Positions 17,318 through 38,552 of a stretch of DNA of 64,000 bases are shown one piece after another (position 1 is the first letter of the stretch; each line of letters begins with the position of its first letter). Source of the DNA: Escherichia phage vB_EcoP_G7C; sequence record NC_015933.1. One strand, given 5' to 3'. The notes below the pieces were generated by a model. That model ran no database searches and was not told where the DNA came from. It was given only the letters and a program-made list of their open reading frames with translations. The position numbers and the translations under genes are program-made.

Positions 17318-17619
17318 CTAAAAGTACTAAAGAAACCATCGTCAAAAAATATCATTGGATGGTGGCAGCACAGGTAATCTTCCAGCTCCCTAAAGCTGAT
17401 GATGGTTCTCTGCTTACCATGAACACAATGCTGCTCACTACCGAACCTCATGTGACCTATAAAGATTTGGCTCGTGCCAATCATTCCCTGAAAATTAGTC
17501 TGGACCAGCGTTTCGACACCTCAGTTGACCTGAAAGACATTGTTTATCTGTCTCTTAGCAACCTGGGTCTGATGTCTGAACCAGAGTTCCAGGCAAACAT
17601 GATTCCCAAGGGGGAATAA
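17314..17619 (+). CDS. Hypothetical protein
   Basis: ATGA overlap with polymerase stop. Confidence 0.55.
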   Translation: MTKSTKETIVKKYHWMVAAQVIFQLPKADDGSLLTMNTMLLTTEPHVTYKDLARANHSLKISLDQRFDTSVDLKDIVYLSLSNLGLMSEPEFQANMIPKGE

Positions 17620-18089
17620 TGACTAAGCTCTCCGGTGGCCTTAATAACTACTATGTAGTTTCAATTAAGAATCCCCAACGGAAAGAGCAAGAGCCATATC
17701 AAGCAGAGTGTGAGGATATTATCCAAGCACTGGGCATGACCTTCGATGAAGGTTGTGCCTTTAAAGCTCTATGGCGAAATGCTGCTGCCCGTATGGGTAA
17801 TGGTAAACCAGGTAATAAAGCCCTGTATGACTGTGAGAAGCTAGTTCATTACGCTAATCGTATTCTCGCTAAAGAAAGGTTAGCGGAGGAACCAGCAGTC
17901 AAAGATGTCCTTAACTCTGTGTGTAATAATTGGATTTACTCTAACGAGAAACCTCTGCTCACTAAACCATTTACGTTTATTGAGGTTATCTTCAAAGACC
18001 AGACTATCCCTATTCCAAGCACTTACCTTGCGAATAACATTGGAGCAATTCCTTGGGATAATGTACAGAAATACAGGATTACTTACTGA
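17619..18089 (+). CDS. Hypothetical protein
   Basis: TAATG overlap; GGGGGA RBS. Confidence 0.55.
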   Translation: MTKLSGGLNNYYVVSIKNPQRKEQEPYQAECEDIIQALGMTFDEGCAFKALWRNAAARMGNGKPGNKALYDCEKLVHYANRILAKERLAEEPAVKDVLNSVCNNWIYSNEKPLLTKPFTFIEVIFKDQTIPIPSTYLANNIGAIPWDNVQKYRITY

Positions 18090-18160: not shown

Positions 18161-18658
18161 ATGAAACAGAGGATTGCCCATGACAGGCTTTTACAGCTTG
18201 TTAGTTATGACCCTATTTCCGGAATTTTTACTCGTAGGAATACCGGAAAGGTATCCGGTTACCTAATGAAGAGTGGTTACGTTCAACTCCGTGTGGATAG
18301 TGTGTTGTACTATGGGCATATCCTTGCATGGTTCTATGTGCATGGCGTATGGCCTACGGATAGGATTGACCATAAGGACAATATACGCCATCACAACTGG
18401 ATAGATAACCTCAGAGAAGCGACCCACAAGCAGAATAACCAGAGTGCTGTTTTATCTAAAACAAACACATCTGGGTTTAAGGGTGTCTCCTTTTCAAAGA
18501 ATATGGGTAAGTACAGAGCAACTATTTGGGTTAATAGCAAACCAATTACATTAGGTTACACAGATAACCCAATAGAGGCTGCTGTTCTCTACGATGAAGC
18601 TGCTGTAACTCATTATGGTGAGTTTGCCAAAACCAACAAACAATTAGGACTGTTATGA
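18161..18658 (+). CDS. HNH homing endonuclease with AP2 domain
   Basis: HNH-type RIDHKDNIRHHNWIDNL; AP2-like GFKGVSFSKNMGKYRATIWVN…LGYTDNPIEAAVLYDEAA. Confidence 0.8.
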   Translation: MKQRIAHDRLLQLVSYDPISGIFTRRNTGKVSGYLMKSGYVQLRVDSVLYYGHILAWFYVHGVWPTDRIDHKDNIRHHNWIDNLREATHKQNNQSAVLSKTNTSGFKGVSFSKNMGKYRATIWVNSKPITLGYTDNPIEAAVLYDEAAVTHYGEFAKTNKQLGLL

Positions 18659-19635
18659 AACTTACTAACAATCATGATGTTAGTCTTGCACTAGCTGTTT
18701 GGCTTGTTACAGATGATTATGATTACGTAGACAATCCTAAGTACCTGTCTGCTACCACATTGCTTAAGCCCATTAAGCAAATCGTCATGAAGCATCGTGT
18801 AGATTTTAGTGACCAGTCAATTGATGTTATGGATTTCGTATCCACATCAATGGGTACTGGCTTACATGATTCTATCGAGAAAGCCTGGAAGCTAGGCCAT
18901 AAGACTGCATTGAAGAAGCTGGGTTATCCTCAGCGAGTAATTGATGCAGTAGTCATTAACCCAACCAAAGAAGACTTTGCTGCTAACCCTGACCTTATCC
19001 CAATCTACATTGAACAACGTGGAACCAAGCAGGTTAAGGGATGGACTATTGGTGGTAAATTCGACATCGTAACGGAAGGTCTGTTGCAAGACTTCAAGTC
19101 TACCTCAACCTATTCCTGGGTTGCTGGTTCCCGTGATGATGAACACAAGATGCAAGGCAGCTTGTACCGTTGGATTCACAACGACATCATTACTGAGGAT
19201 GTAATTCGTATTAACTACATCTTCACCGACTTCATGAAACACATGGCTAACAGCAATCCGAACTATCCTGCTAATCGTATTATGCATAAGGATATTCCGT
19301 TACTGTCTGTCGAGAAGACTGAACGTTGGGTGGAAGAGAAGATTCACTTAATCGAAAAGTACTGGGATGCACCTGAAGAGGAAATCCCCGAATGTACTGA
19401 CGAGGAGTTGTGGCGAACAGAGCCACAGTTCAAATACTTCTCTGATGCTTCTAAGGTAGATGTACCTGGAGCCAGAAGTACCAAAAACTTTGGCGATATG
19501 GCATCTGCCCGTATCTTCATGGCTGAAAAAGGTGGCAAGGGTGCTATCAAGGTTGTGGAGGGGCAGGTTAAACGCTGTTTATATTGCCCTGTCGCATCCA
19601 TTTGCAAACAAAGAGAGAGATATTTTCCATCATGA
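18655..19635 (+). CDS. PD-(D/E)xK nuclease with C-terminal Fe-S cluster cysteines (Cas4/RecB-like exonuclease)
   Basis: Motif II FDIV, motif III QDFK, QxxxY (QGSLY), four Cys including C-x2-C-x5-C at the C-terminus (CLYCPVASIC). Confidence 0.65.
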   Translation: MKLTNNHDVSLALAVWLVTDDYDYVDNPKYLSATTLLKPIKQIVMKHRVDFSDQSIDVMDFVSTSMGTGLHDSIEKAWKLGHKTALKKLGYPQRVIDAVVINPTKEDFAANPDLIPIYIEQRGTKQVKGWTIGGKFDIVTEGLLQDFKSTSTYSWVAGSRDDEHKMQGSLYRWIHNDIITEDVIRINYIFTDFMKHMANSNPNYPANRIMHKDIPLLSVEKTERWVEEKIHLIEKYWDAPEEEIPECTDEELWRTEPQFKYFSDASKVDVPGARSTKNFGDMASARIFMAEKGGKGAIKVVEGQVKRCLYCPVASICKQRERYFPS

Positions 19636-21785
19636 GCATTGACCTTACCGGAGTAGTGCATCATCCAGCGATTGAAGAAATCGTAGATGTGCTCTGCAAT
19701 AAAACCCAGAATAACGACCGGGGATTCTTCCGTGTCGAAGTAGCCTACTTCTTGGCTAAAATGGCATCCTGCATGGGTGCAACCATCGTAACTAAAGACC
19801 GTGGTGACCTGCCGGTAAACATCTACGCTATGGCGTTGGCTACATCTGGTTTCGGTAAAGGTCACTCGGTAAATATCATTGAAGACGGGTTCATGACTGG
19901 CTTCCGTAAACGTTTTATGGAAGACACCATGCCCGTCATTGCAAATGACCGTTTATGGAAGATTGCTAACGAACGTGCTGCTCGTCAGGGTACAGACCAG
20001 AATGATGAGTTCGATAAAGTTGAAGCAGAGTATAAGCGTGCTGGGGCATTCCCATTCACATTCGACTCTGGTACAGCACCTGCTGTAAAACAGCTTCGTC
20101 ACAAGCTGCTTATGGCTGGTTGTGGTGCTATTAACTTACAGATTGATGAGATTGGTTCCAACCTCATTGCCAACGTTGAAGTTCTTAACCTGTTCCTTGA
20201 GTTGTATGACCAGGGGAAAGTAAAACAGAAGTTAACCAAGAACACTGCTGAAAGTATTCGTGGTGAAGAACTGGATGGTAAAACTCCTGCTAACCTGCTG
20301 CTGTTCGGTACTCCGAGTAAGTTGCTGGATGGTGGGCAGACTGAAGACCAGTTCTATGACTTCCTCGATACAGGATATGCACGTCGTTGTCTGTTTGCCA
20401 TTGGGCACTTAGACAAGCGAGCGCATGCAACGATGACTCCGGAAGAAATCTACCATAACCTGATTAAGCAGGATAACGTTCAGTCTCTTGGTAAGTGGGC
20501 TAACCACTTCCATAGTCTGGCTGACCCAAACCTGTTTGGCTTTAAGATGATTGTGGAAGATGCAGTGGGTATTGCTCTGATTGCTTACAAAATTGATTGT
20601 GAGAAACAAGCAGAAGCTATGGCTGACCACGAAGAAATTCGTAAGGCTGAAATCTCCCACCGTTACTTCAAGGCTCTTAAGCTGGCAGGTGCACTGGCGT
20701 TTGTTGACCAGAGTTCATTCATTGAGATGTCTCACCTTAAACAAGCAATCCTGCTCGTAGAAGAATCCGGAGCAGCATTCCAGGGTATTCTCAATCGTGA
20801 GAAAGCCTATGTGAAGCTGGCTAAGTACATTGCCTCTGTGGGCAAAGAGGTTACTCATGCTGACTTGCTGGAGTCATTACCATTCTATAAGAGTGGTAAT
20901 GCAGCTCGTAATGAGATGATGACTCTTGCTACAGCATGGGGTTACAAACAGCACATCATTATTAAGAAGACCTTCAATGAAGGCATTGAGTTCTTCCGTG
21001 GAGAGACTCTGAAAGAGACTGACACCAATGAGATGATAGTGGCATATAGTGATAGCTTTGCTTATGACTATGTTGGTGAACGTGTACCGTTTGACCAGCT
21101 ACATGTATTAACCCAAGCTCCCGGTATGCACTGGGTAAACCATCACATGAAGAATGGGCATCGTTCTGAAGAGAACGTTATTCCAGGATTTAACATGATT
21201 GTTATTGACTGTGATGGTGGAGTACCTCTGCATACGTGCCATGAACTGATGAAGGAATATAAGTTCATGACCTATACCACTAAGCGTCATACCGATGAAG
21301 AGAACCGCTTCCGTCTGATTATTCCAATGAACTATGAGTTACACCTTGATACTGAGGAATACAAAGAGTTCATGAATAACGTTATGGCTTGGCTACCATT
21401 CGAAACGGATGAGTCTGCTAACCAACGAGCCAAGAAGTGGATGTCCTGTGAGACTGGTTCCTATCATTACAACCTTGATGCGAATCTGTTGGATGTACGT
21501 GACTTTATTCCTCGTACCAGTAAGAACGAGCAGTTCCAGAACCAGATGAAGGAAGTACAGTCGTTGGATAATCTGGAGCGTTGGTTCGCTGGTCGTATTG
21601 CCTCCGGTAATCGTAATAATCAAATGATTAAGTACGCACTGGCATTAGTAGACAGTGGTTGGGACTTTGCTCAAGTACAGCAAGCCGTCTACTCATTCAA
21701 TAAGAAACTGGCTAATCCATTACCAGATGATGAATTGAATTCAACCGTAATGGTCACCGTGGCTAAACGCTTCGCTGGCAAGTAA
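19632..21785 (+). CDS. Putative DNA primase / replication initiation protein
   Basis: Large ORF between nuclease and ATPase/SSB genes; ATG at 19632 overlaps upstream stop (ATGA); function assigned by position in an N4-like replication module, no unambiguous motif. Confidence 0.5.
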   Translation: MSIDLTGVVHHPAIEEIVDVLCNKTQNNDRGFFRVEVAYFLAKMASCMGATIVTKDRGDLPVNIYAMALATSGFGKGHSVNIIEDGFMTGFRKRFMEDTMPVIANDRLWKIANERAARQGTDQNDEFDKVEAEYKRAGAFPFTFDSGTAPAVKQLRHKLLMAGCGAINLQIDEIGSNLIANVEVLNLFLELYDQGKVKQKLTKNTAESIRGEELDGKTPANLLLFGTPSKLLDGGQTEDQFYDFLDTGYARRCLFAIGHLDKRAHATMTPEEIYHNLIKQDNVQSLGKWANHFHSLADPNLFGFKMIVEDAVGIALIAYKIDCEKQAEAMADHEEIRKAEISHRYFKALKLAGALAFVDQSSFIEMSHLKQAILLVEESGAAFQGILNREKAYVKLAKYIASVGKEVTHADLLESLPFYKSGNAARNEMMTLATAWGYKQHIIIKKTFNEGIEFFRGETLKETDTNEMIVAYSDSFAYDYVGERVPFDQLHVLTQAPGMHWVNHHMKNGHRSEENVIPGFNMIVIDCDGGVPLHTCHELMKEYKFMTYTTKRHTDEENRFRLIIPMNYELHLDTEEYKEFMNNVMAWLPFETDESANQRAKKWMSCETGSYHYNLDANLLDVRDFIPRTSKNEQFQNQMKEVQSLDNLERWFAGRIASGNRNNQMIKYALALVDSGWDFAQVQQAVYSFNKKLANPLPDDELNSTVMVTVAKRFAGK

Positions 21786-21841: not shown

Positions 21842-22594
21842 ATGTCCGAAGAAATCTCCAATGATATGAACACTCAGCTAATCCTGATTGCAGGATTCTC
21901 AGCGAGTGGTAAATCAGCATCACTGCGTAATATCCGGAACCAGGAACGCTGGCTGTATTTGAATACAGAAGCGGGTAAGCGTCTGCCTTTCCGTAATAAG
22001 TTCAACACCTATAACATCGAAGACCCATATCAGATTTGGGAAGCATTTGATGTTGCATCTCCGGGTGGTGAAATGGCAGACGATGTTGATGGTATCATTA
22101 TCGACTCTGCTACCTTCATGATGGACATGTTGGAATCTCAGTATGTATTGCCATCTGCTAATACCCAGAAAGCCTGGGGAGACTTTGCACAGTTCTTTAA
22201 AATACTGCTGCAACAGAAAGTCGTTAAGTTTGGTAAGCCAGTAATCATTACTGCTCATGCCAAAGATGAACTTGACGAAGCTGCTGGTGTGATGAAAACA
22301 TTCATCCCGGTTAAGGGTTCACTGAAGAACAATGGCCTTGAGGCTTACTTCTCTACAGTGGTTTATGCAGAACGTGTAGACATTAAAGAGCTGGAGAAGT
22401 ATGGCAACAAGATGCTTGATATTACGGAAGAAGAACGTGACTTAGGCTATAAGCACGTATTCCAGACTCGTCCAACCAAGAAGTCTGTTGGTAAACGACT
22501 TCGCTCACCAATGGGTATGTTTGATAAGTCGCAGACTTATATTGATAATGATGCCCAAAAACTCTTAGACCATCTGGCTGAATACTACGCTTAA
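21842..22594 (+). CDS. P-loop ATPase, RecA-like fold (Sak4/AAA_24-like recombination or replication protein)
   Basis: Walker A AGFSASGKS, Walker B GIIIDSATF; GAGGAAAAA RBS. Confidence 0.55.
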   Translation: MSEEISNDMNTQLILIAGFSASGKSASLRNIRNQERWLYLNTEAGKRLPFRNKFNTYNIEDPYQIWEAFDVASPGGEMADDVDGIIIDSATFMMDMLESQYVLPSANTQKAWGDFAQFFKILLQQKVVKFGKPVIITAHAKDELDEAAGVMKTFIPVKGSLKNNGLEAYFSTVVYAERVDIKELEKYGNKMLDITEEERDLGYKHVFQTRPTKKSVGKRLRSPMGMFDKSQTYIDNDAQKLLDHLAEYYA

Positions 22595-22634: not shown

Positions 22635-23438
22635 ATGTCACTGTTCAGTAACTTGAAAGAAAAGACCAAAAACGTTGAAGCTGTAAAAGACTCCCTTGGT
22701 GGTGGTGGCTTCGGTGCAAAAGAATCCGATATCTACACCGGTACTGTAAAAGTAGCTTATGTAGGTAAAGCTGACTCTGGTGCAGACTGGATGCAGTTAA
22801 TCATTGAAAACCTGAAAGGTTCTGACGGCAATGATGCTGGTGAGTTCCGTGCTCAGGTGTACTTTACTTCTGGTAATGCTAAAGGCAATAAGCCAACTTA
22901 CGAGAAGAATGGTAAAGAGTACTTCCTGCCTGGTTACACTGTCATTAATGACATGATGCTGATGGCTACTGGTTGTGAACTGCCAGATGCAGACTTCGAA
23001 GAGAAGATTGTTAAAGTCTATGACTTCGATCTGAAAGCTGAAACCAATAAATCTGTCATGGTTCCAGTTGACCTGGTTGGTCAGACTGTTACCTTCGCTC
23101 TGGAAAAGGTTCTGGAAGCTAAGCAGGTTAAAGGTGACAACGGTTACGTTGACTCCGGTGAAACCCGTGAAGTAAACGAGATTCAGAAAGTGTTTCACCC
23201 GGAACTGCTGGTCACAGTCGTCGAGGCTCAGGAAGCAGAGAAGGCTGAGAAAGAACTGACCCCAGAACTGGCTGTATTCTACGGAGCATGGCTGGAAAAG
23301 AACAAAGGTAAAACCCGTGATAAGACCAAGGGTTCTGCTGGTGGTAATGGTAAAGGTGGCTTGCCTCCTAAACCAGGTGCAGGTGCTGGCACGGGTACTA
23401 CTCCAGCTGGTGGTAAATCTCTGTTCGGTAAGCGTTAA
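22635..23438 (+). CDS. Putative single-stranded DNA-binding protein (by position), Gly-rich termini
   Basis: 267-aa ORF with AGGAAAAA RBS; Gly-rich C-terminal tail; assignment by synteny. Confidence 0.45.
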   Translation: MSLFSNLKEKTKNVEAVKDSLGGGGFGAKESDIYTGTVKVAYVGKADSGADWMQLIIENLKGSDGNDAGEFRAQVYFTSGNAKGNKPTYEKNGKEYFLPGYTVINDMMLMATGCELPDADFEEKIVKVYDFDLKAETNKSVMVPVDLVGQTVTFALEKVLEAKQVKGDNGYVDSGETREVNEIQKVFHPELLVTVVEAQEAEKAEKELTPELAVFYGAWLEKNKGKTRDKTKGSAGGNGKGGLPPKPGAGAGTGTTPAGGKSLFGKR

Positions 23439-23992
23439 TGAAAATCCCAATTGTCGGTGCAGACATTAGCCTCCGCAATTGGGGATTAGCTCGTGGGATG
23501 CTGGACATTGAGTCCGGCGTCTTCGAGCAGGTCGAACTTAAACTGGTTCAAACTGAAGTTGACCACAACAAACAAGTTCGAACCAACTCCAAAGATATAC
23601 AAGCTGCCCATGATTTGTTTCTTGGTTGTGAGGAATGGTTACGGTCTGCTAAAGCAGTATTCGTAGAAGTACCAGTAGGCTCTCAGTCTGCTAATGGAAT
23701 GAAGTCCTATGGTGTATGCGTAGGATTAATTGGTGCATTCCGTGCATTGGGTTGTCCAATCTTTGAAGTATCCCCAATTGAAAACAAACTTGCACTGGTC
23801 GGCGATAAAACTGCATCAAAAGACACGATGATTCGTGCTGCTCATGCCATCTATCCTGAAGCCAACTGGCTCACGGATAGTAAAGGTAAACTTCTGAATA
23901 AGAATGAGCACTTAGCTGATGCAATCGGTGCAATCCACGCTGGTGTAAATCTCCCAGCTTTCCAGAATCTCATTAAATTAATAAAGGCATAA
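23438..23992 (+). CDS. RuvC-like Holliday junction resolvase
   Basis: N-terminal IVGADISLRNWGLA resembles the RuvC catalytic-Asp strand; C-terminal HLADAIGAIHAG resembles the RuvC D..A.A motif. Confidence 0.5.
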   Translation: MKIPIVGADISLRNWGLARGMLDIESGVFEQVELKLVQTEVDHNKQVRTNSKDIQAAHDLFLGCEEWLRSAKAVFVEVPVGSQSANGMKSYGVCVGLIGAFRALGCPIFEVSPIENKLALVGDKTASKDTMIRAAHAIYPEANWLTDSKGKLLNKNEHLADAIGAIHAGVNLPAFQNLIKLIKA

Positions 23993-25378: not shown

Positions 25379-26629
25379 TATCGTGAAGGGTTCTGTTAGA
25401 ATCCTTTGAGATAGGAACTCCTATCATAACCTTTCTTAACTTAATCTTTGCCGTATGGCACTGACGCTAGGGGTGGCCCCCCATCCGTCAGACAGACTAT
25501 TTTAAGAACCGGTTATCTCAGAAAATGTAAAGCAACATTCGGGTTAATCAATGGCCTCTCCTATAGGGGCCATTTCTGAATCTTAGGCTATATCCCAAAG
25601 GTTAGTATCTTTGGGATAAGGCTTCAGATCCCTTATCAAACTAACGCTCATGTTGAGCACAACATTAACCAATAATGTCGGATAGTTCGTTACGCTATTC
25701 ATCCAGCATCGAGTTGTTAGGTCTTACATGCAACATAGGGTAATGGGAGGATTCGTCCCCTCCCTCCTATTATGAACCAATTCGTGAGAACTCTTATCTT
25801 GGCTACCGGGAAAGGAGTGAAAAATGTTCGTAAACTACTCCCCAATTAGGTTCAACTCCTAAGCCAGGGTAAGTGTTCTCACTAATTGGAAAAATTAAGA
25901 CGGGTCTGGTGAAGTAGATGGGGTTCGATTCCCTCCGGTGGAGTAATCCACTAGCGTGCTTGGTGCACGAATAAGACTTAATACTGGTGGTTCGATTCCA
26001 TCCCCCGTTACCCGAAGTCGCCAGGTACTTATGGCAAACGGGTAGTAACGAACTAGTCATTCGTCAAACGCCCACCCAATTATGAGTCAGCAAGAACGCC
26101 TTCACTTAAACTTAAACAAAAAAGCTTAACGCAATAATTATGTAGGGGTATGTAAGGATTGCGAAGAAGGAGCCAGTTAGAGCCTGGCATGGCTCACCTA
26201 TTGCATTACCAAGCCACTAGGCAAGTACTGTTAAGCAGTATACACGTTATGAGCCTCCTGGGGGCTAGTGGAAGTTGCCAACATCAACGAGATGTCCTGT
26301 GTTGTCTCTGAGGCTGCTTGGTAGTGCATTCTAATCAGCAGTAACATAGTCCTGATTGCATAGCACTCTAAAGACAACACTGGTAAGACAGTCCAGTGGC
26401 TGCTAATGTATTGTTATTCCCCTCGACGGGAATTTCGCTAGTGAAGGTAACACTTAAAAATCCAAACCCACGTCTTACTACTATCGGGCTATCAACCCAC
26501 GGTCGCTTAACCCTGTAGTGATAGTAGTTTGACGGCCTGCCTCGTTGACTGCGTTAAAGTCACTAAGTCCCTCGGAGCCGTCACTCTGGGGGACTTTTTT
26601 ATTTGAGAACTACTTATTGGACGATTCAT
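25379..26629 (+). ncRNA. ORF-poor structured RNA island with tRNA-like T-arm motifs; candidate ncRNA or degenerate tRNA cluster
   Basis: No ORF of 60 aa or more on the plus strand; two exact GGTTCGATTCC T-arm 11-mers (25922-25932, 25989-25999) each with a pairing T-stem; several perfect 6-10 bp stem-loops; ends at a terminator. Confidence 0.4.
26567..26600 (+). terminator. Rho-independent terminator closing the RNA island
   Basis: GC-rich stem GTCCC…GGGGAC followed by T6. Confidence 0.55.
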
Positions 26630-26771
26630 ATGATTGACCTAATCTTAACCCCGTATGCCTATGAGGTAACGGATAACCGTGGACGTAAGTCTTTGGTATT
26701 TGCAGGTAGCGTAGCCTATAACAACGCAGTCATGTTTAAATACAAACTTAAACCACTCTATGAGGCTAATA

Positions 26772-26909
26772 ATGGAATTTGATGATTTAGATTTTGAAGC
26801 TATCGAAAGGGCGAACCAGGAGAAACTGGAACAGGCTAATCGTGAAGCTGAAGAGTTAGAAAACGCTAAAGGCAACAACGATTGCACGAGTGGTGGTTGC
26901 ACCATTTAG
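26772..26909 (+). CDS. Small acidic protein (45 aa)
   Basis: ATG with GAGG RBS; overlaps a weaker 50-aa ORF at 26630-26782. Confidence 0.3.
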   Translation: MEFDDLDFEAIERANQEKLEQANREAEELENAKGNNDCTSGGCTI

Positions 26910-26990
26910 CAAACAGGTATATGGTAGTTTTTACCGAAAGGTACTGAACTACCCGACATGTGGTAAGGCTCGAGAAGCCAAAACAAAATA

Positions 26991-27013
26991 AGCCCTCCTA
27001 GTGAGGGCTTTTC
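26991..27013 (+). terminator. Terminator-like hairpin
   Basis: Stem AGCCCTC/GAGGGCT followed by TTTT. Confidence 0.5.
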
Positions 27014-27033
27014 CATATCTGTAGGAAACTATT

Positions 27034-27264
27034 ATGACGCAAGTATCTATTACCTCTGTTGTTCGTGAAGCCATTCTCAACAATACTGTTCGTACATATT
27101 CGTTCGATGAAATCGCAGAGAAGCTAGGAGTAACCCGTTACGTGGCTAAGAAACTCTACTTCACTTTCCTGTGGTTCCCTACGGAAGAAACATTACGGAA
27201 GATTAAAGAAACTGGTAAATTTCCAAGTGAAGGACGCAAGCCTAAAATGTGGAAAACACCCTAG
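27034..27264 (+). CDS. Small HTH DNA-binding protein (76 aa)
   Basis: AGGAAA RBS 7 nt upstream; HTH-like YSFDEIAEKLGVTRYVAKKLY; bracketed by terminators. Confidence 0.5.
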   Translation: MTQVSITSVVREAILNNTVRTYSFDEIAEKLGVTRYVAKKLYFTFLWFPTEETLRKIKETGKFPSEGRKPKMWKTP

Positions 27265-27276
27265 CTTCTAAAAGCA

Positions 27277-27298
27277 AAGCCCCTCTTTTGAGGGGCTT
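27277..27298. terminator. Bidirectional rho-independent terminator between convergent units
   Basis: Perfect 9-bp stem AAGCCCCTC/GAGGGGCTT with TTTT loop, A-run upstream and T-run downstream. Confidence 0.75.
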
Positions 27299-27305
27299 TC
27301 TCATT

Positions 27306-30300
27306 TTAGTTTACTAAGTTCATCCAAGGGTTTAGGTTGTGAGCACGAAGCCCCTGACCAAAGCCCCATGAGTAATCCAGACTACCCTTAGCAGCAATAC
27401 TAAAGATGTTGTCCTGAATAGGTAAGCCAACGTTACCAAACATGGTAGGAGTTGGAGCCAGCATCGCCATTGCTGCATGTACTGGGTTATTGCGAATCAT
27501 GGACACTGCAACCTTAGCTGAACGAATCTTAAAGTTGTAGAACCACATTAAACCAACGCTTTCCATATACCCACGGAAACGGCCCGGCAGACGGTCATAG
27601 TTAATGAACTCTTCGGTTACACGTCCCAGTGCTTCTTCACGAGTCTTACCTTTACGCTGGGTCAATTCATCATAGATGATTGCTTTAGCGATAAAGTCAG
27701 AGTACTCAACCGTCTTCTGGATACCCTGGAACAGAGCAGTATCCTTAGTGATAAGTGCATAACGACCAGCAGCACGTACAGACTTAGGTAACTTATCCGC
27801 CAGCTTTTCCATGTATTCGTGAAGTTTACCTTCAGTAATCAGGATGTCATCACGACCAATACCAGCATCTGCAATTGAAGAGAACTCACCAGCTTCTATC
27901 AGAGGCCAGATACTCATACGCTTATGGCTATCAGTAATGGACTGAATCTCAGCCTTAAGTTTACGAATCTGGTTCGGGTTAGTAGCTGCACGTAATTCTG
28001 CTTCTGCATCTACCTGACGTAAACGAGATTTAAGGTATTGGTTAATCTCAGCAGTCTTCCGTGGAATGCTCTTAGCAATGTTCTTAACCGGTACACCACG
28101 AGCAACCATCTGGTAAAGGTTAGCCAAAAAGTTAACAACAGGTACGACTACTGACTTAACTACAATCAGAGTCTTAGCATCTTTAACTAAATTTTGAACC
28201 AGGTTCTCACCACCCATTAAGTACTTATAGGCACGGTTACCGGCTAAACCCAGAATAGCTTTTTTAAAAGTATTAAGCGTTTCCGGGGACCAACGAGAAT
28301 TACCAGACCAAGCATCACCAATCGAAGCTGCACGATAGCCAAGTGCATCATTCAGCATGTCACGACGTACCCACAGTTCACCCTCACCAAACAGTTTTTC
28401 TGCTTTCCGTCGAGTTTCACTGTTCATCAGCTTAAGAGCATCAGCAGTTACTGGGTCCAGTTTAGAACCAAAAAGGTTCACGTACTGGGACTTATTAGCA
28501 GCAGACATCTTAATGTCTTCCTTGTACATGCTATACAGGTTCTCAATCAGCATATCATTGAAACGCTGAGCCTTAGCTTCTTCCACCTGACGTCCACGCC
28601 ATACACCAATTGCACGGGCAAGATGATTTTCACCTTCAATATGCTTCAGCATATTAGGGTTAATTGATTGCTCATAAGCAACCACATCACCTTTAGCATT
28701 ATATACAGGCAGCAGTGGTTCATTACCACGTTCACCACGAGCTAGTGCTTTAGCGATACGGTCTACAGAAGGCTTGTCAGTAATACGACCAGCTACCATG
28801 GAACCCATAGTAAAGCCTGTACCGAGGTCTACACCACCAGCAGTATTACGAACGTTCTGTAGAATACCTTGTGAGAACGGAGCCTGTGCCTGTACTGGGG
28901 CAAAGTAGTAGCTACGTGCCAGACCTCGGTTAGCAGAGCTACCTTGATAAGTACCCAGACGAACATAGGACTTCTCTATCAAATCACCAAACTCGCTATC
29001 TTCAGCAACAACCAGACTAACACCCTGTTTAGTCTCACTAGGGATATACCCTTTGTACTGGTTCAGGGTTGCACGCATATCAGACTTGGCTTTAGCCATT
29101 TCATCTTTACGCTGCCCAACCAGGTAAGAAGTAGCAAAGTCCATTCCCTCAACTTCTGTCTGAGCCAGTGAAGATAACATCTCACGGTCGGACTTGTTCA
29201 TTGCTTCCAGTGCATACAGGGTAATAAGTTTATCCAGTTGAGCTACATCTACAATAGAACGAGTAGTCTTACGTTCACCCAGCATACGAGAGATTGCAGT
29301 AGCATTACGCAGCAAGTTTTTACCGACTGTGCCATTAATCATGTACTGAGCCAGTTGCTTAGATTTACGGTTAATCAGAGGCCAGTTACGACCAGCTTGT
29401 TTCTGCAAATCTGCTTCCAGCTTATTCACTTCACGGTCAACAATCTTCTGGTCTGAAAGCAGGTCACGAATTTCAGCCAGAGACATGGTGTCACGCAGGA
29501 CAGCTAAGTCAGTTTTACCCATACCAGTGTACATTGCTTTCCACTCATCCTTAGTCAGCTTACGGCTGAACTTAGATGCGATAGTGGTAGGCAGGTGTTC
29601 ACGGAACTGCTGACGGTCAGCCTGCACCTGTGCACGGACTGCTTTAATCAAATCGTATACAGAAGCATTGCTCTTAGTACGACCGGTTAAATCATTAACC
29701 AGGTCATGGAAAGGTTGCCATACTTTACCCTGGTTCATTGCAACCATAACGCCTTCAGCTACGTTTGCACCATTCTTCTCTGTAGCAATAGCAGCCATTA
29801 GTTGTGCAGCATGAGCAGCACCTTTGACCAATGGGTTCTTGGTATTAGCTGCAACTTCACGAGCACTTTCTAAAACACGAGTAGACAGTACATCAATAGA
29901 GTCCACCAAATACTGGTTAGCACGGTCAATAGCATTACCACTAGGAGTAGCAACGGAATCATAGAATGACTGTGCATTTAGGCTAGTCTGCATGATTGTT
30001 TGAGCCAGTGCATCCATACCTTCCTGTACGTTGGTAGCTTTGGTATCACCTGCTACACGAGCATTCAGACTAGCCATTGCAGCAGTACCAATGTTAGTCA
30101 GCATTGCATCAACGGTATTCCCAGATTTCTTATCTGCTTTCATAACAGGAATGTTAGCCAGTACGTTACGTACCTCTTCACTTACCATTGCCAGACCAAC
30201 AAAGGTAGGCAGTATTGAAGAACGACCCTGTGCATCAAACTCAATATTGTTAGCACCCATGATGGTATCGAACTTCTGCTGTGCATAGTAACGGTCAGCA

Positions 30301-36300: not shown

Positions 36301-38552
36301 GTTTTAATCTGTTTACTAACAATGTCTTGAGGACGTAAGCCCAGTTCTTCTGCTTTAGCATCATACTCACGTGCACCCTGTAACAGAGCAGCAGCTGATT
36401 GCAGGGCAGCACGTTGACGATTATTCAGTGTAATCTTACCTTCACTTGCGTGCTTCAGAACCATGTTCACTGAATCTGCATCCAGTACTTCTGGAGACAC
36501 ATCAGCAGCCATAGCAATGTTGTTTGCTTGGGCTTGATTAGCTTCTTCAGTAGCTTTCAGTTTACCTGCTTCAGCTTGTTCCTGAATCATGGAATGGATG
36601 GCACGGAATGCACGAAGTACTTTAGGGGTATTCTGTATGTTAGCCATCAGGCCGGAGAACTGGTCTACGATTGCAGCAGCAGGAGAACCTTGTTCCAGAT
36701 TAGCCAGAGCACCTGGGTCACGGTTAATGAAGCTATCCATAGACATGATGTTGTCATACATCTGGATTGCAGCTTCCATTTGAACGTCAGGGTCTTCAGC
36801 AGTATTAACCAAGTCAGCCATCTTCTGAATAGCTTCCACACGGTTAGTGGAACCAGAAACAGCTTCACGGATTACTGGGTTGGCTTGTTCCAATTCTACT
36901 GGGTCAAACTTCATTGCCTGAGTCAAGTCAGCAGCATACTGGGTAGCAGCAGCTTTCTCTTCTGGAGTGATATCCATTGCATCTACTGCTTCCTGTACGG
37001 TTGCCTGTGCTTGTTCTGCCTGAGCAACAGCTTCCTGTGCAGCAGCATTAACCGTAGCATCGGCTACAGGGGATGCTTGTTCATTACGCTTAGCAACTTC
37101 TTCCCCACGTTGAACCAGGATGTTAGTAAGAGGAGATGCAGCTTTTGCTAATGTTTTACCAACCAGAGAAGCACCAGCCAGAGTGGTACGAAGAGCAGGT
37201 CCAGCAGCAGCACCGGCAGCTTTAACAGTTGCACCAGGAGCCTGAGCAACACCAGCACTACCGAAGCCATAGAGTGCACCAAGACCCGCTTGCTCACCGA
37301 CACCTTTGAGGGTATCTCGGGATGCATCAACATTTTCCTTGATTGCACGGTTCTGTGCGAACTGACCAAAGCCTGATTGAGTACCCTCTTCAAAAGTCTG
37401 AGCACCAAGGTTAGTAAGAGCTGCCCCAGCAGAACCAACCCTCATGGGGTTAAGTTCAAACTTAGATACTAACGGACCCATAGCAGCAGCAACTGGGGCA
37501 GTTAAGGCAGCAGCAATGATACCCGTTTCAGATGCAGTCTGACGACGTGCTTCATCAGGAGATAAACCATCAGCAATATGTTGTTGGTAAACAGGAGACT
37601 TACTTGCCAGTTCTGGATGGGACATCTTCATGATTTCAGAAGCAGTCTGTTGGTATGCACCCCCGGCTTCCATGCCACCGATTGCAATAGCAGGTGCAGC
37701 AACACGACCAGTAGACAATGCAACCTGTGCAGGACGTGAACCCAACCCAGCAGCTAAGGTAATACCCTTAACAGCTTTATCACCACCTACCATTACTTTA
37801 CCGAGTGCAGATACACCACGAATAAGTGGACCACCAGTAAAGAGGGAACCGACACCCTCACTCAGTCCATCTGAGGCAGCCATACCATTATCAAGTGTGT
37901 TAGCAACAGAGTCGAAAGCATCACGACCAATACGAGACAGGGAGGCAACCAAATCACTCTCCCCGTTTTTGATGTCCTGTTCATAGAGTTTCTGGTTCTT
38001 TTGAGCAGAAATCTGGTTCTGATTCTGAACAACTTTACGGGTAGCATTCAGTGCATCAGACTGTAGATTGTGTACGCCTTCATTCAGCCAATCCATCCCG
38101 GAAGCAATGGTTGCCCCGGCATTATCATTGACCAGACCTGCGCCAAGAGCAGCAATGCCCCCAAGGGTATTAGCAACACCAAGACCAACACCAGAAAGAG
38201 TATCGCCAAATGCTTCTGCGTTAGTACGCTGTTTAGATAAGTCCTGACGTACAGCATCCGCAGCATTAGCTCGGCTATTAAGAATCTGTAAACCTTGCTC
38301 ATTACCGTACTTATTAATGATTTCTAATGGGGAGGCTTGAGTGAAGTCTGCCTGAAGTGAACCTGGTTCGAATGCACCGATTCCAAGATTACCTACTCGT
38401 CCAGTCTGGAGAGTGTAAGCATTCTCTGGGGTTAATTGGAAAGGGCTTTGCCCTTGTGCAGCTTGCTTCTGAGAGGTTGCAGTAGAGACATCGACTTGCT
38501 TAGCATTAGTGATGCTGTCTGCGAAACCTGCCAGACGGTCAAATGTTGACAT
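27306..38552 (-). CDS. Virion-encapsidated RNA polymerase (N4 vRNAP-like giant protein, about 3748 aa)
   Basis: Single 11.2-kb ORF; T7-like RNAP motifs in the central region: motif A YVEADGVTNGP, motif B KRGIAKNPLTITIYGAG, motif C KIFDGMNIG; ATG at 38552 has AGGAAA RBS (ORF-track TTG at 38570). Confidence 0.9.
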   Translation of the reverse strand: MSTFDRLAGFADSITNAKQVDVSTATSQKQAAQGQSPFQLTPENAYTLQTGRVGNLGIGAFEPGSLQADFTQASPLEIINKYGNEQGLQILNSRANAADAVRQDLSKQRTNAEAFGDTLSGVGLGVANTLGGIAALGAGLVNDNAGATIASGMDWLNEGVHNLQSDALNATRKVVQNQNQISAQKNQKLYEQDIKNGESDLVASLSRIGRDAFDSVANTLDNGMAASDGLSEGVGSLFTGGPLIRGVSALGKVMVGGDKAVKGITLAAGLGSRPAQVALSTGRVAAPAIAIGGMEAGGAYQQTASEIMKMSHPELASKSPVYQQHIADGLSPDEARRQTASETGIIAAALTAPVAAAMGPLVSKFELNPMRVGSAGAALTNLGAQTFEEGTQSGFGQFAQNRAIKENVDASRDTLKGVGEQAGLGALYGFGSAGVAQAPGATVKAAGAAAGPALRTTLAGASLVGKTLAKAASPLTNILVQRGEEVAKRNEQASPVADATVNAAAQEAVAQAEQAQATVQEAVDAMDITPEEKAAATQYAADLTQAMKFDPVELEQANPVIREAVSGSTNRVEAIQKMADLVNTAEDPDVQMEAAIQMYDNIMSMDSFINRDPGALANLEQGSPAAAIVDQFSGLMANIQNTPKVLRAFRAIHSMIQEQAEAGKLKATEEANQAQANNIAMAADVSPEVLDADSVNMVLKHASEGKITLNNRQRAALQSAAALLQGAREYDAKAEELGLRPQDIVSKQIKTDESRSNEGQYSALQHAKRIRSAYNSGNFDLASAYLSDFMKFAQHMQNKVGALNEHLISGNADKNKSVHYQALTPTREWVRSRTGLGVNPYDTKSVKFAQQVALEAKTVADIANALATAYPELNVSHVKVTSLDSRLNKPAAQVVKEFRQGGLNATQSQQTNEPVNQVDETPVKTQEPAITVQSKTAPVEAKETAPNTVESKSEPEKVSKPKSESTSVPNGPEMKTAEFTGKQQATYMQIGQYFDYNGKEYISLGKDIEGVRAVPSTGGKTIVIPGESTVTGKSDVLTSFKYGKTNVPYVMTPEGRIFSLRSTREVWSSPSQARNDFMNYVRNTFSQPEVTPVQEEKVPKSEKASPVVDDATLTNEDTIEQPTESERDAYVKENTISQETLNKYGDRRESPWLFADGTVVGSNGDHISLSDVFGHDGYRDMSLDTGAIRSMFYKGSEQPFVSLQLFDDQKLTAEQFNTVQSFVEANNAHILVGVDTSGLNTNNVEEDEVSLAQLKADYTVGGKPLSGMEAVFPVYNNEKTPNQFLKAFTLPEEPKSRTIGSESPLADIKKALSSAARFEAFTQKENNVLAGDVLERYQDLMDFGETLKATLSKRLAKFLANKNVGKRFAEGTEANRWVSGKLLNIVEKDGDTFKFNDQLLETAVLAGLQWRLTATQNAAIKDMKDVAAITGVDASLLPESILTEFENAQTLVEATNSLAQKIESYWGLNRNPNAPLGYTKGIPAAMATEILSSLIEMGAVTETMLDVSEIDPDSNKTIGLYTINKLADKDPINNFPTAIEEAVLVNPEEKTYFGDDIPSVAQTQLRNPAVRNTPEQKAALKAEQATEFRVHMPMVNFYEALGRDGILELMGAGSLNPDLLNENTAKSLEGKNLSVSMAYDSLFGLINQLKEQENGLDTPIHYGYNMTRVGRMQMLGKNNPQSSKLVREAILPTFSTIDLSNENSQAFSDFQLGLAQALGIKVHKMSREAMSENLTKALEGNLKPAVDMMVEFDKSGYLPTDAVDILKTSLGDNKSFVALMALMEYARYLNSDDRANFTTPLYVEADGVTNGPINAMVLMTGGKFTPDWIKNTAKGGLFFGRAGKTMNEHCSIDDNVDLYEASTNGLQQALNALRTTYRNNVPVINQINHLQKLMDLFIKDFNLNEDGTLDLKRGIAKNPLTITIYGAGARGIAGNIVGAITDTIYERFSDVLQARAADPSISPAMAMFGKEAASEADAQAMLDTFLTSMEALTGKIPAKRKGKLFIKEVDGALTGKLNPQKFTVSGNALKNLQENMLHLFVEPMRTGIRNTVGEGLMYSTENLQKATQIQSLVLQDMFQQAVQTKLAEKEKDPTWKKGDFLTQKELNEIQESLSPLAPMIETGSQTFYLAGSESTDVANQVLATNLDDRMRVPMSIYAPSQAGVAGIPFMTIGTGDGMMMQTLSTMKGAPKNTLKIFDGMNIGISDITDASRKANEAVYTSWQGNPIKNVYDSFSKFMKNVDFDKLSDKTIDDIARSALDFEQLSHISRVEGDRQYKIDMIKNSGVNLIERNLRNIALGVDIRHKVMNQVQTTVDQMAAVGAPYVNNGKISLEGLTVDQQVAKLNELFDAELNKRRDAVRAAKAEPVKEAPVKEVPAMEQVGRVLKSGVRLLSNTAITKLAKEMSPEQQAVLKEVQKSLAAKDYKVVYGTPAQLDAYAIEKNITRPAPEDIEAAEAGNTYGWTNFDDKTIYLVTPSLETLVHELVHASTFESVLAHYEGTPNEAVQNIEDLMNQFLALDVKDESPEVREAYADALYTINGYLSNGYIEPAIAKAAALNEYMAWGLTNQELISKQKKTTALKVMIQSVYEAIKRLVFGREEAPANADDMFSGLLFNSSVVMRGQAPTAAVAKDTTLFHNKAYGDNTRLEELGQTFDKLITNYIGSEPVQQVIREGKFSDAKKHATKVTRDVQAHGFTMNMQEQRLFTNIVAALATEAAISPAALSRAQEYYAHVTKNLTVESFMTDPDSTNPADRYYAQQKFDTIMGANNIEFDAQGRSSILPTFVGLAMVSEEVRNVLANIPVMKADKKSGNTVDAMLTNIGTAAMASLNARVAGDTKATNVQEGMDALAQTIMQTSLNAQSFYDSVATPSGNAIDRANQYLVDSIDVLSTRVLESAREVAANTKNPLVKGAAHAAQLMAAIATEKNGANVAEGVMVAMNQGKVWQPFHDLVNDLTGRTKSNASVYDLIKAVRAQVQADRQQFREHLPTTIASKFSRKLTKDEWKAMYTGMGKTDLAVLRDTMSLAEIRDLLSDQKIVDREVNKLEADLQKQAGRNWPLINRKSKQLAQYMINGTVGKNLLRNATAISRMLGERKTTRSIVDVAQLDKLITLYALEAMNKSDREMLSSLAQTEVEGMDFATSYLVGQRKDEMAKAKSDMRATLNQYKGYIPSETKQGVSLVVAEDSEFGDLIEKSYVRLGTYQGSSANRGLARSYYFAPVQAQAPFSQGILQNVRNTAGGVDLGTGFTMGSMVAGRITDKPSVDRIAKALARGERGNEPLLPVYNAKGDVVAYEQSINPNMLKHIEGENHLARAIGVWRGRQVEEAKAQRFNDMLIENLYSMYKEDIKMSAANKSQYVNLFGSKLDPVTADALKLMNSETRRKAEKLFGEGELWVRRDMLNDALGYRAASIGDAWSGNSRWSPETLNTFKKAILGLAGNRAYKYLMGGENLVQNLVKDAKTLIVVKSVVVPVVNFLANLYQMVARGVPVKNIAKSIPRKTAEINQYLKSRLRQVDAEAELRAATNPNQIRKLKAEIQSITDSHKRMSIWPLIEAGEFSSIADAGIGRDDILITEGKLHEYMEKLADKLPKSVRAAGRYALITKDTALFQGIQKTVEYSDFIAKAIIYDELTQRKGKTREEALGRVTEEFINYDRLPGRFRGYMESVGLMWFYNFKIRSAKVAVSMIRNNPVHAAMAMLAPTPTMFGNVGLPIQDNIFSIAAKGSLDYSWGFGQGLRAHNLNPWMNLVN

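Follow-up and report, generated by a model that had tools for sequence, protein, structure and literature searches.

We have analysed a window of 64,000 nucleotides (the whole stretch of DNA under study) from Escherichia phage vB_EcoP_G7C (NC_015933.1; hereafter G7C), and report here on one gene in it, at positions 18655 to 19635. The source phage is a Gamaleyavirus (N4-like, Schitoviridae), and the gene product is the gp42-family exonuclease of N4-like coliphages, already annotated, near-identical genomes included. The protein has a single domain and belongs, as a Cas4-like member, to the RecB/PD-(D/E)XK nuclease superfamily. By analogy with related enzymes, it is probably a 5'-3' end-resection exonuclease that makes 3' tails for annealing by the phage single-stranded DNA-binding protein (SSB) and a Sak4-like protein, in recombination-dependent replication and concatemer formation. 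An earlier note, made from the DNA letters, had proposed a Cas4/RecB-like nuclease with an iron-sulfur (Fe-S) cysteine cluster at this place. The features of the gene, in window coordinates, are:

18655-19635, + strand: gp42-type exonuclease gene, ortholog of N4 gp42; an open reading frame (ORF) of 981 bp with an ATG start, encoding 326 amino acids; assigned through phrog_2139 and identity to the Mimir124 and N4 proteins
18853-19167, + strand: PD-(D/E)XK / RecB-like catalytic core; residues invariant in 144 representatives, fold match
18904-19002, + strand (approximate limits): N4-type-specific insertion of about 33 residues, near residues 84-116; gaps in the alignment with the LE4-like subfamily
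19393-19605, + strand: putative C-terminal four-cysteine metal-binding module; cysteine map, invariance and predicted secondary structure

The identity of the gene was clear at several levels. At the DNA level it is 93-97% identical in 54 Gamaleyavirus-type (G7C-like, N4-related) coliphage records, with one further record at 60-80%. The protein shares 99.1% amino acid identity with a product of Escherichia phage Mimir124 annotated as "exonuclease," and about 70% identity, over the full length, with coliphage N4 gp42 (YP_950520), whose RefSeq name is also "exonuclease." The best match in PHROGs was phrog_2139 ("exonuclease," E 7.6e-152), covering residues 1-325 of 326. A weak second match was obtained with phrog_1706 ("CRISPR/Cas system associated," E 1.1e-11), and NCBIfam returned no match for the protein. 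The full-length similarity to gp42, together with conserved synteny, places it in the N4 gp42 family. The G7C and N4 proteins have the same length, invariant motifs and cysteines, and both genes overlap the next one by ATGA and lie with the DNA polymerase block on one side and the gp43 primase on the other. Essentially nothing functional sets the two apart; only G7C has an HNH homing endonuclease gene directly upstream.

The family is large and widespread. Homologs were found by tblastn in 470 phage records, with hosts including Vibrio, Pseudomonas, Escherichia, Klebsiella, Erwinia, Achromobacter, Rhizobium, Roseobacter and others. When 1.84 billion cluster representatives were searched exhaustively, 2549 were retrieved at E ≤0.001, 353 of them at E ≤1e-30. 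In the literature, gp42 was listed as "Unknown" in 2009 (PMC2784036), and all three pan-proteome methods of another study assigned it to the core of N4-like viruses, under no other name than "gp42" (PMC7650795). Relatives in UniProt are already labelled as PD-(D/E)XK proteins.

Two homologs deserve separate mention. The N4 gp42-like exonuclease of roseophage vB_DshP-R7L (gp60) was found, with an SSB homolog, among the purified-virion proteins by gel electrophoresis and mass spectrometry (PMC11934525); it may be carried in the particle or may be an abundant contaminant. The second is encoded in the 248-kb "partial genome" of Enterobacter phage SonariX (PQ898399, L017), where a block at 223-234 kb contains exonuclease-, primase- and Sak4-sized genes of the N4 type, all annotated as hypothetical. 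The exonuclease homolog is 44% identical to the G7C protein, and the record may represent either a jumbo phage with an acquired module or a chimeric assembly.

We have aligned the protein with 144 cluster representatives of the family (36-70% identity, mean column identity 33%). The 326-residue ORF with FDIV, QDFK and Q…Y motifs described in the earlier note agreed with our translation, the motifs mapping to residues 136-139 (nt 19060), 145-148 (nt 19087) and, as QGSLY, 167-171 (nt 19153). They belong to a complete set of core motifs, namely the motif I-like G67xxxH71 and E120, motif II G134-K-F-D137, motif III D146-F-K148 and the QhXXY motif Q167-G-S-L-Y171. Columns G67, H71, E120, G134, D137, D146, K148, Q167, Y171, P205, C247, C308 and C311 were invariant in all 144 sequences. 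The core-motif residues among them are kept in a sister subfamily typified by gp62 of Leptospira phage LE4, which shares 23-27% identity with the gp42 family and aligned with it in hhalign with a probability of 100% (E 4.6e-54). A 16-sequence alignment including this LE4-like subfamily kept H71, D137, D146, K148 and Q167 invariant and Y171 in at least 90%. The LE4-like proteins do not have the insert at residues ~84-116, which in the G7C protein is predicted to form two short helices and a strand (helices 93-98 and 105-110, strand 99-101).

The AlphaFold2 model, built from a 138-sequence alignment, had a mean predicted local distance difference test score (pLDDT) of 97.2 and a predicted template modelling score (pTM) of 0.90, with no low-confidence segment. 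When the model was compared with the PDB by Foldseek, the top match was the Cas4 protein SSO0001 (4IC1, E 6.9e-07), followed by RecE (E 4.4e-05) and, lower, by EXO5, AdnAB, RecB and 3L0A; the fold match extends to Dna2. Among viral models, an N4-like ortholog was the nearest (TM score 0.89), and PD-(D/E)XK/Cas4-like nucleases of phages and archaeal viruses came next. The alpha/beta core fold, the motif II aspartate, the motif III (D/E)xK, the motif I histidine and QhXXY together place the protein in the PD-(D/E)XK / RecB-like superfamily, and the structure prediction by which the earlier note had wanted the core checked returned exactly such a core. The sole Pfam match was PF12705 (PDDEXK_1), at 17.3 bits and E 0.0047, below the gathering threshold of 22. 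Half of the family (72 of the 144) matched this model at E ≤0.1, the best at 3.7e-07, and many LE4-like relatives carry PF12705. By its sequences, the gp42 family lies at the fringe of the PF12705 model.

The protein contains exactly four cysteines, C247 (nt 19393), C308 (19576), C311 (19585) and C317 (19603). The C-x2-C-x5-C triad noted earlier is therefore present, at nt 19576-19605, a few bases off the span of 19572-19604 first given for it. C317 was found in 143 of the 144 representatives and the exact CX2CX5C spacing in 142. With C247, C308 and C311 invariant, the conservation that the earlier note had made a test of its proposal held, and it extends to the LE4-like subfamily, where all four cysteines are kept, with "LPECTDEE.W" around C247 and a triad spacing of CX3-4CX5C. 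C247 lies inside an invariant P-x-C-T-x-E-E-x-W motif, about 76 residues after QhXXY and 61 before the triad. The interval between C247 and C308 is occupied by a beta-beta-alpha-beta mini-domain of about 55 residues (~250-305; strands 258-262, 277-279 and 297-301, helix 282-291), followed by a helix at 307-310. Every 10-residue block of the region 241-320 had a pLDDT of at least 96. Since an inserted domain usually starts and ends at the same point, and since C247 is as invariant as the triad, we infer from the model that the four cysteines form one structural metal site, which would be local to the C-terminus rather than staple the N- and C-termini together.

The metal centre is most likely an Fe-S cluster, by analogy with Cas4, AddB, EXO5 and Dna2, and less likely zinc. 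A variant of the same nuclease with a structural Zn2+ held by the four cysteines, which we consider rather unlikely, would find some support in the moved fourth ligand and the variable triad spacing of the LE4-like proteins, suggestive of a site geometry that may differ from that of canonical Cas4. A related protein, PDB 3L0A, does contain zinc (PMC3466216). However, the CX2CX5C spacing is identical to that of the Fe-S-binding SSO0001 (C188/C191/C197) and Pcal_0546 (C200/C203/C209) (PMC4176176), every one of the nearest structural neighbours is an Fe-S protein, and zinc in over-expressed proteins can be an artefact (PMC3466216). As for 3L0A itself, this zinc-crystallised protein belongs to DUF3799 (PF12684) and has the canonical one-plus-three cysteine layout; a marginal PF12684 match was obtained for only 1 of the 144 gp42-family members.

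The resemblance to Cas4 is one of fold and motifs. Cas4 and AddB proteins have one N-terminal and three C-terminal cysteines, the latter as CX2CX5C (PMC4176176, PMC3466216); the cluster, termed a "staple," is bound by C32, C188, C191 and C197 in SSO0001 and by C64, C200, C203 and C209 in Pcal_0546 (PMC4176176; PMC3466216). Compared with Cas4 (SSO0001, 4IC1; Pcal_0546, 4R5Q; types I-C and I-G), the gp42 protein is without the N-terminal cluster cysteine and has C247 instead. No conserved N-terminal cysteine was found, no column N-terminal to D137 having a cysteine in more than 10% of the 144 sequences. Hence, the arrangement is not the one "typical" of Cas4/AddB that had been claimed for it, all four cysteines being C-terminal to the core. 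The protein is also about 120 residues longer than Cas4, with the ~33-residue core insert and the ~55-residue mini-domain in the cysteine module, and its gene lies in a phage replication/recombination operon, not with cas1/cas2. No association with cas1/cas2 or with CRISPR adaptation was seen in G7C or in the other Schitoviridae examined.

At the sequence level the comparison was made with a genuine Cas4, Synechocystis slr7015, which matches both PF01930 and PF12705 and carries C16 in "YC-x-R," G38xxxH42, D76, E89-Y-K91, Q104 and C171/C174/C180, and with a reference alignment of this protein and two Cas4 sequences from the PDB. PF01930 matched neither the exonuclease nor any of its 144 relatives. 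The hhalign comparisons with the Cas4 alignment were insignificant (probability 1.7% for the gp42-family alignment and 10% for the LE4-like one), and their low-probability local alignments paired the Cas4 triad, GxxxH, D, xYK and Q with the same gp42 motifs. By motif spacing ("LLKPxRQxIL" vs. "YCPRxxYL"), the equivalent of the Cas4 N-terminal cysteine may be sought near K38/P39, which we offer as a lead. Of the proposed Cas4/RecB-like PD-(D/E)xK nuclease, the fold and motifs were thus borne out, whereas membership in Cas4 was not: the gp42-type exonuclease is Cas4-like in fold without being, by sequence, a Cas4 proper.

Other nuclease families differ as well. In the "iron-staple" enzymes AddB, AdnAB, Dna2 and EXO5, the cluster links an N-terminal stretch with the C-terminus and so spans the nuclease core, whereas in gp42 all four cysteines follow the core and the protein stands alone, without a fused helicase. 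The lambda Exo, RecE and YqaJ-type nucleases are a different family: no Pfam YqaJ match was found for the protein, lambda Exo and RecE have no cysteine metal site, and gp42 is structurally nearer to Cas4.

The gene context bears on the function. The genes around the exonuclease in G7C are:

18161-18658, + strand: HNH-AP2 homing endonuclease, a neighbour with no part in the exonuclease function; HNH_3 (2.7e-09), AP2 (4.8e-04), phrog_99 (9.7e-60)
19632-19635, + strand: ATGA stop/start overlap of exonuclease and primase, read from the sequence
19632-21785, + strand: N4 gp43-type DNA primase of 717 amino acids with PriCT_1 at the C-terminus; phrog_2135 (E reported as 0), PriCT_1 (2.6e-07)
21842-22594, + strand: Sak4-like (RecA-core) single-stranded DNA annealing protein, N4 gp44 ortholog; phrog_124 (E 7.6e-50), AAA_24
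22635-23438, + strand: N4-type SSB, gp45 ortholog; phrog_743 (E 2.4e-88)
23438-23992, + strand: RuvC-like Holliday junction resolvase, N4 gp46 ortholog; phrog_159 (E 1.2e-41)

The order exonuclease-primase-Sak4-SSB-resolvase is conserved across Schitoviridae subfamilies, being common to G7C, N4, LIT1, Vibrio phage D502 and Erwinia phage Frozen, and the exonuclease gene lies downstream of the DNA polymerase in G7C and the compared Schitoviridae. In distant relatives the annealing protein changes. The LE4-like exonuclease adjoins a member of one of three further, non-homologous annealing families: RecT in LE4 itself, ERF in the metagenomic phage contigs L004-L006 and L014-L016 (six in all), and a Sak/Rad52-like protein in two others (L007, L008). 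All eight metagenomic contigs have an adjacent RusA gene and a Toprim-DnaB primase-helicase, both transcribed divergently from the exonuclease. A constant exonuclease with a swapped annealing-protein family is the signature of a two-component phage recombination module, of which lambda Exo/Beta and RecE/RecT are examples. The pairing of the relatives with several annealing proteins argues for a resection nuclease of a recombination/replication module. On the exonuclease strand of these eight contigs, ERF or Sak follows the exonuclease after one to four small ORFs, and a 3025-residue ART-PolyVal/LPD38 polyvalent protein is encoded nearby in L007 and L008.

Taken as an end-resection enzyme, the exonuclease would work as follows. 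A metal-dependent (Mg2+/Mn2+) active site, predicted to consist of H71, D137, D146, K148, Q167 and Y171, would digest the 5'-terminated strand from DNA ends with 5'-3' polarity and leave 3' single-stranded tails. These would be coated by the gp45-type SSB and annealed by the gp44-type Sak4-like protein, and branched intermediates would be cut by the RuvC-like resolvase. The outcome would be recombination-dependent replication and the formation of concatemers via terminal repeats, with the exonuclease co-expressed with the gp43-type primase. The metal identity, substrates and partners are those that we infer for the protein, and the polarity is the one suggested by its family and gene context.

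Published work is compatible with this proposal. SSO0001 and Pcal_0546 are 5'-3' single-stranded DNA exonucleases (PMC3466216, PMC4176176), and a 5'-3' exonuclease domain is missing from N4 DNA polymerase (PMC2784036). In 1986, Guinta et al. (J Biol Chem 261:10736; cited in PMC8994998) purified a 5'-3' exonuclease encoded by N4. The early and middle/replication genes of the closest fully annotated genome are contained in its first 50 kb; in this stretch, only the gene of the gp42 type carries the name exonuclease, and there is no annotated nuclease of the FEN or RNase H type. The gene for the 1986 enzyme is most likely gp42. The "replication-associated exonuclease" of the earlier note agrees with N4 gp42 as the ortholog and with a conserved place in the replication/recombination module, the activity itself being predicted.

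Several points weigh against end resection as the function, or against the evidence used for it. PDB sequence and profile searches with the protein, the family profile, LE4 gp62 and the LE4-like profile found no meaningful match, so that the link to solved structures was taken from the fold comparison. The clustering of C247 with the triad would follow from invariance and topology, not from distances. In the searchable literature we found no paper linking gp42 to the 1986 N4 enzyme, and no biochemical data for the G7C exonuclease or N4 gp42. The Cas4 relative SSO1391 is active in both directions (PMC4176176), and polarity is therefore not to be presumed. Finally, the immediate downstream partner is the primase, not the annealing protein, which equally fits primer or flap processing.

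The last point leads to the main rival, a role in lagging-strand maturation, in which the nuclease, instead of resecting ends for recombination, would act with the primase and the DNA polymerase and clear Okazaki fragments of RNA primers or 5' flaps, as Dna2, EXO5 and MGME1 do. The ATGA overlap and the conserved adjacency to the gp43-type primase speak for it, as do the missing 5'-3' exonuclease domain of the N4-type polymerase (PMC2784036) and the absence of any annotated FEN/RNase H-type nuclease from the early/middle region of the closest relative. In the distant relatives, however, the gene shares its operon with RecT, ERF or Sak, and the Toprim-DnaB primase-helicase is on the opposite strand. 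N4 replication has been reported to need the 5'-3' exonuclease of host Pol I, which would cover primer removal. We regard the lagging-strand role as unlikely to be the main function; it is compatible with end resection, the two not being mutually exclusive.

A counter-defence role, in which the protein would mimic Cas4 and, as has been suggested for Campylobacter phages, subvert CRISPR adaptation in the host, or else degrade host DNA, is most improbable: it could draw on the structural similarity to Cas4, the weak phrog_1706 match and the precedent of a phage Cas4-like protein affecting spacer acquisition (PMC4283603, as discussed in PMC5704561), but there is no PF01930 match, the hhalign probabilities against Cas4 are those given above, the gene is a core gene in N4-like phages of many hosts (PMC7650795; Vibrio, Pseudomonas, Rhizobium, Roseobacter and others), and it lies always within the replication/recombination module and never beside cas genes. 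The suggestion that the enzyme may interfere with host spacer acquisition thus found no support. As a separate observation, Mimir124 carries two genes labelled "anti-CRISPR protein" by Pharokka at 36366-37365 (about 26550-27550 in G7C, if collinear). These genes, if real, would be the CRISPR-related functions of the phage, rather than the Cas4-like exonuclease.

The junction with the primase was examined more closely. The exonuclease stop TGA (19633-19635) shares an ATGA with the primase ATG (19632-19634), as the earlier note had it, and the 5' end of the exonuclease gene has a similar ATGA overlap (18655-18658) with the stop of the preceding HNH ORF. N4 has the same 4-nt overlap (gp42 end 27317, gp43 start 27314), and it is probable in Erwinia phage Frozen once the primase start is corrected. 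In LIT1 and Vibrio phage D502 the two genes do not overlap and are separated by gaps of 14 and 24 nt, respectively. The conserved feature is the adjacency of exonuclease and primase, and the overlap is lineage-specific. Translational coupling from exonuclease to primase is possible, to judge from the overlap.

The length of the primase had to be revised. The 733-residue replication protein described earlier is the maximal ORF from a TTG at 19584, and we have rejected this start in favour of the ATG of the ATGA, the conserved start, which gives 717 residues. In N4, the 10 open codons upstream of the primase ATG contain no start codon. When the primase N-termini M(S)IDLTGV.HHPAIEEIVDVLCNKTQN of N4, G7C and Erwinia phage Frozen are compared, their alignment begins at the ATG of the ATGA, and the phrog_2135 alignment begins at residue 3 of the 717-residue protein. 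Based on these three observations, ATG 19632 is taken as the true primase start. Primase start calls are inconsistent among deposited genomes, with an ATG 57 nt upstream in Mimir124 (L001, 6921-6980) and a GTG 8 codons upstream in Frozen (L011, 5963-5990). G7C has no ATG at the upstream start of Mimir124, its 19584-19634 segment (+ strand) offering only TTG at 19584 and 19602, and in G7C, Mimir124 and Frozen alike the conserved N-terminus MxIDLTGV.HHPA begins with the ATG of the overlap. We have also rejected opposite-strand ORFs such as 19344-19865 (- strand), which are mechanical ORFs inside a strongly conserved coding region.

Upstream, the HNH gene separates the gp41-like gene from the exonuclease. 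N4 has no HNH gene here and its gp41 abuts gp42, and in the close relatives E20 and F22 a kinase gene lies directly beside the exonuclease. The early/middle region of Mimir124, the closest relative, contains no fewer than five HNH genes. The G7C ORF at 17619-18089 (+ strand, 156 amino acids) is annotated in Mimir124 as "3'-phosphatase, 5'-polynucleotide kinase" (phrog 7063), an annotation that may be weak; it had no Pfam match at E ≤0.01 and is far shorter than the N4 gp41 that it replaces (~202 amino acids).

As a discovery the finding carries little weight, the name "exonuclease" being already in RefSeq (N4 gp42), PHROGs and near-identical deposited genomes. Only two points are mildly new, namely the shift of the fourth cysteine together with the mini-domain insertion, and the systematic occurrence of the wider family beside annealing proteins of four families. 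A broader reading is put forward tentatively: the gp42 family and its LE4-like sister (2549 clusters at 50% identity, E ≤0.001) may be a distinct, biochemically uncharacterised Cas4-like branch, in which the N-terminal staple cysteine was lost and replaced by that of P-x-C-T-x-E-E-x-W, and the insertion of the mini-domain gave a self-contained C-terminal metal module. Such a nuclease would be a widespread, interchangeable partner of four unrelated annealing-protein families, Sak4, RecT, ERF and Sak/Rad52, and its gene would be the long-sought one of the N4 5'-3' exonuclease. The descriptive value lies in a confident Cas4-like fold and a set of catalytic and metal-binding residues for a core Schitoviridae gene that has been without a function in family-level papers. 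These may be of use for N4-based recombineering tools and for assigning the classic N4 exo gene.

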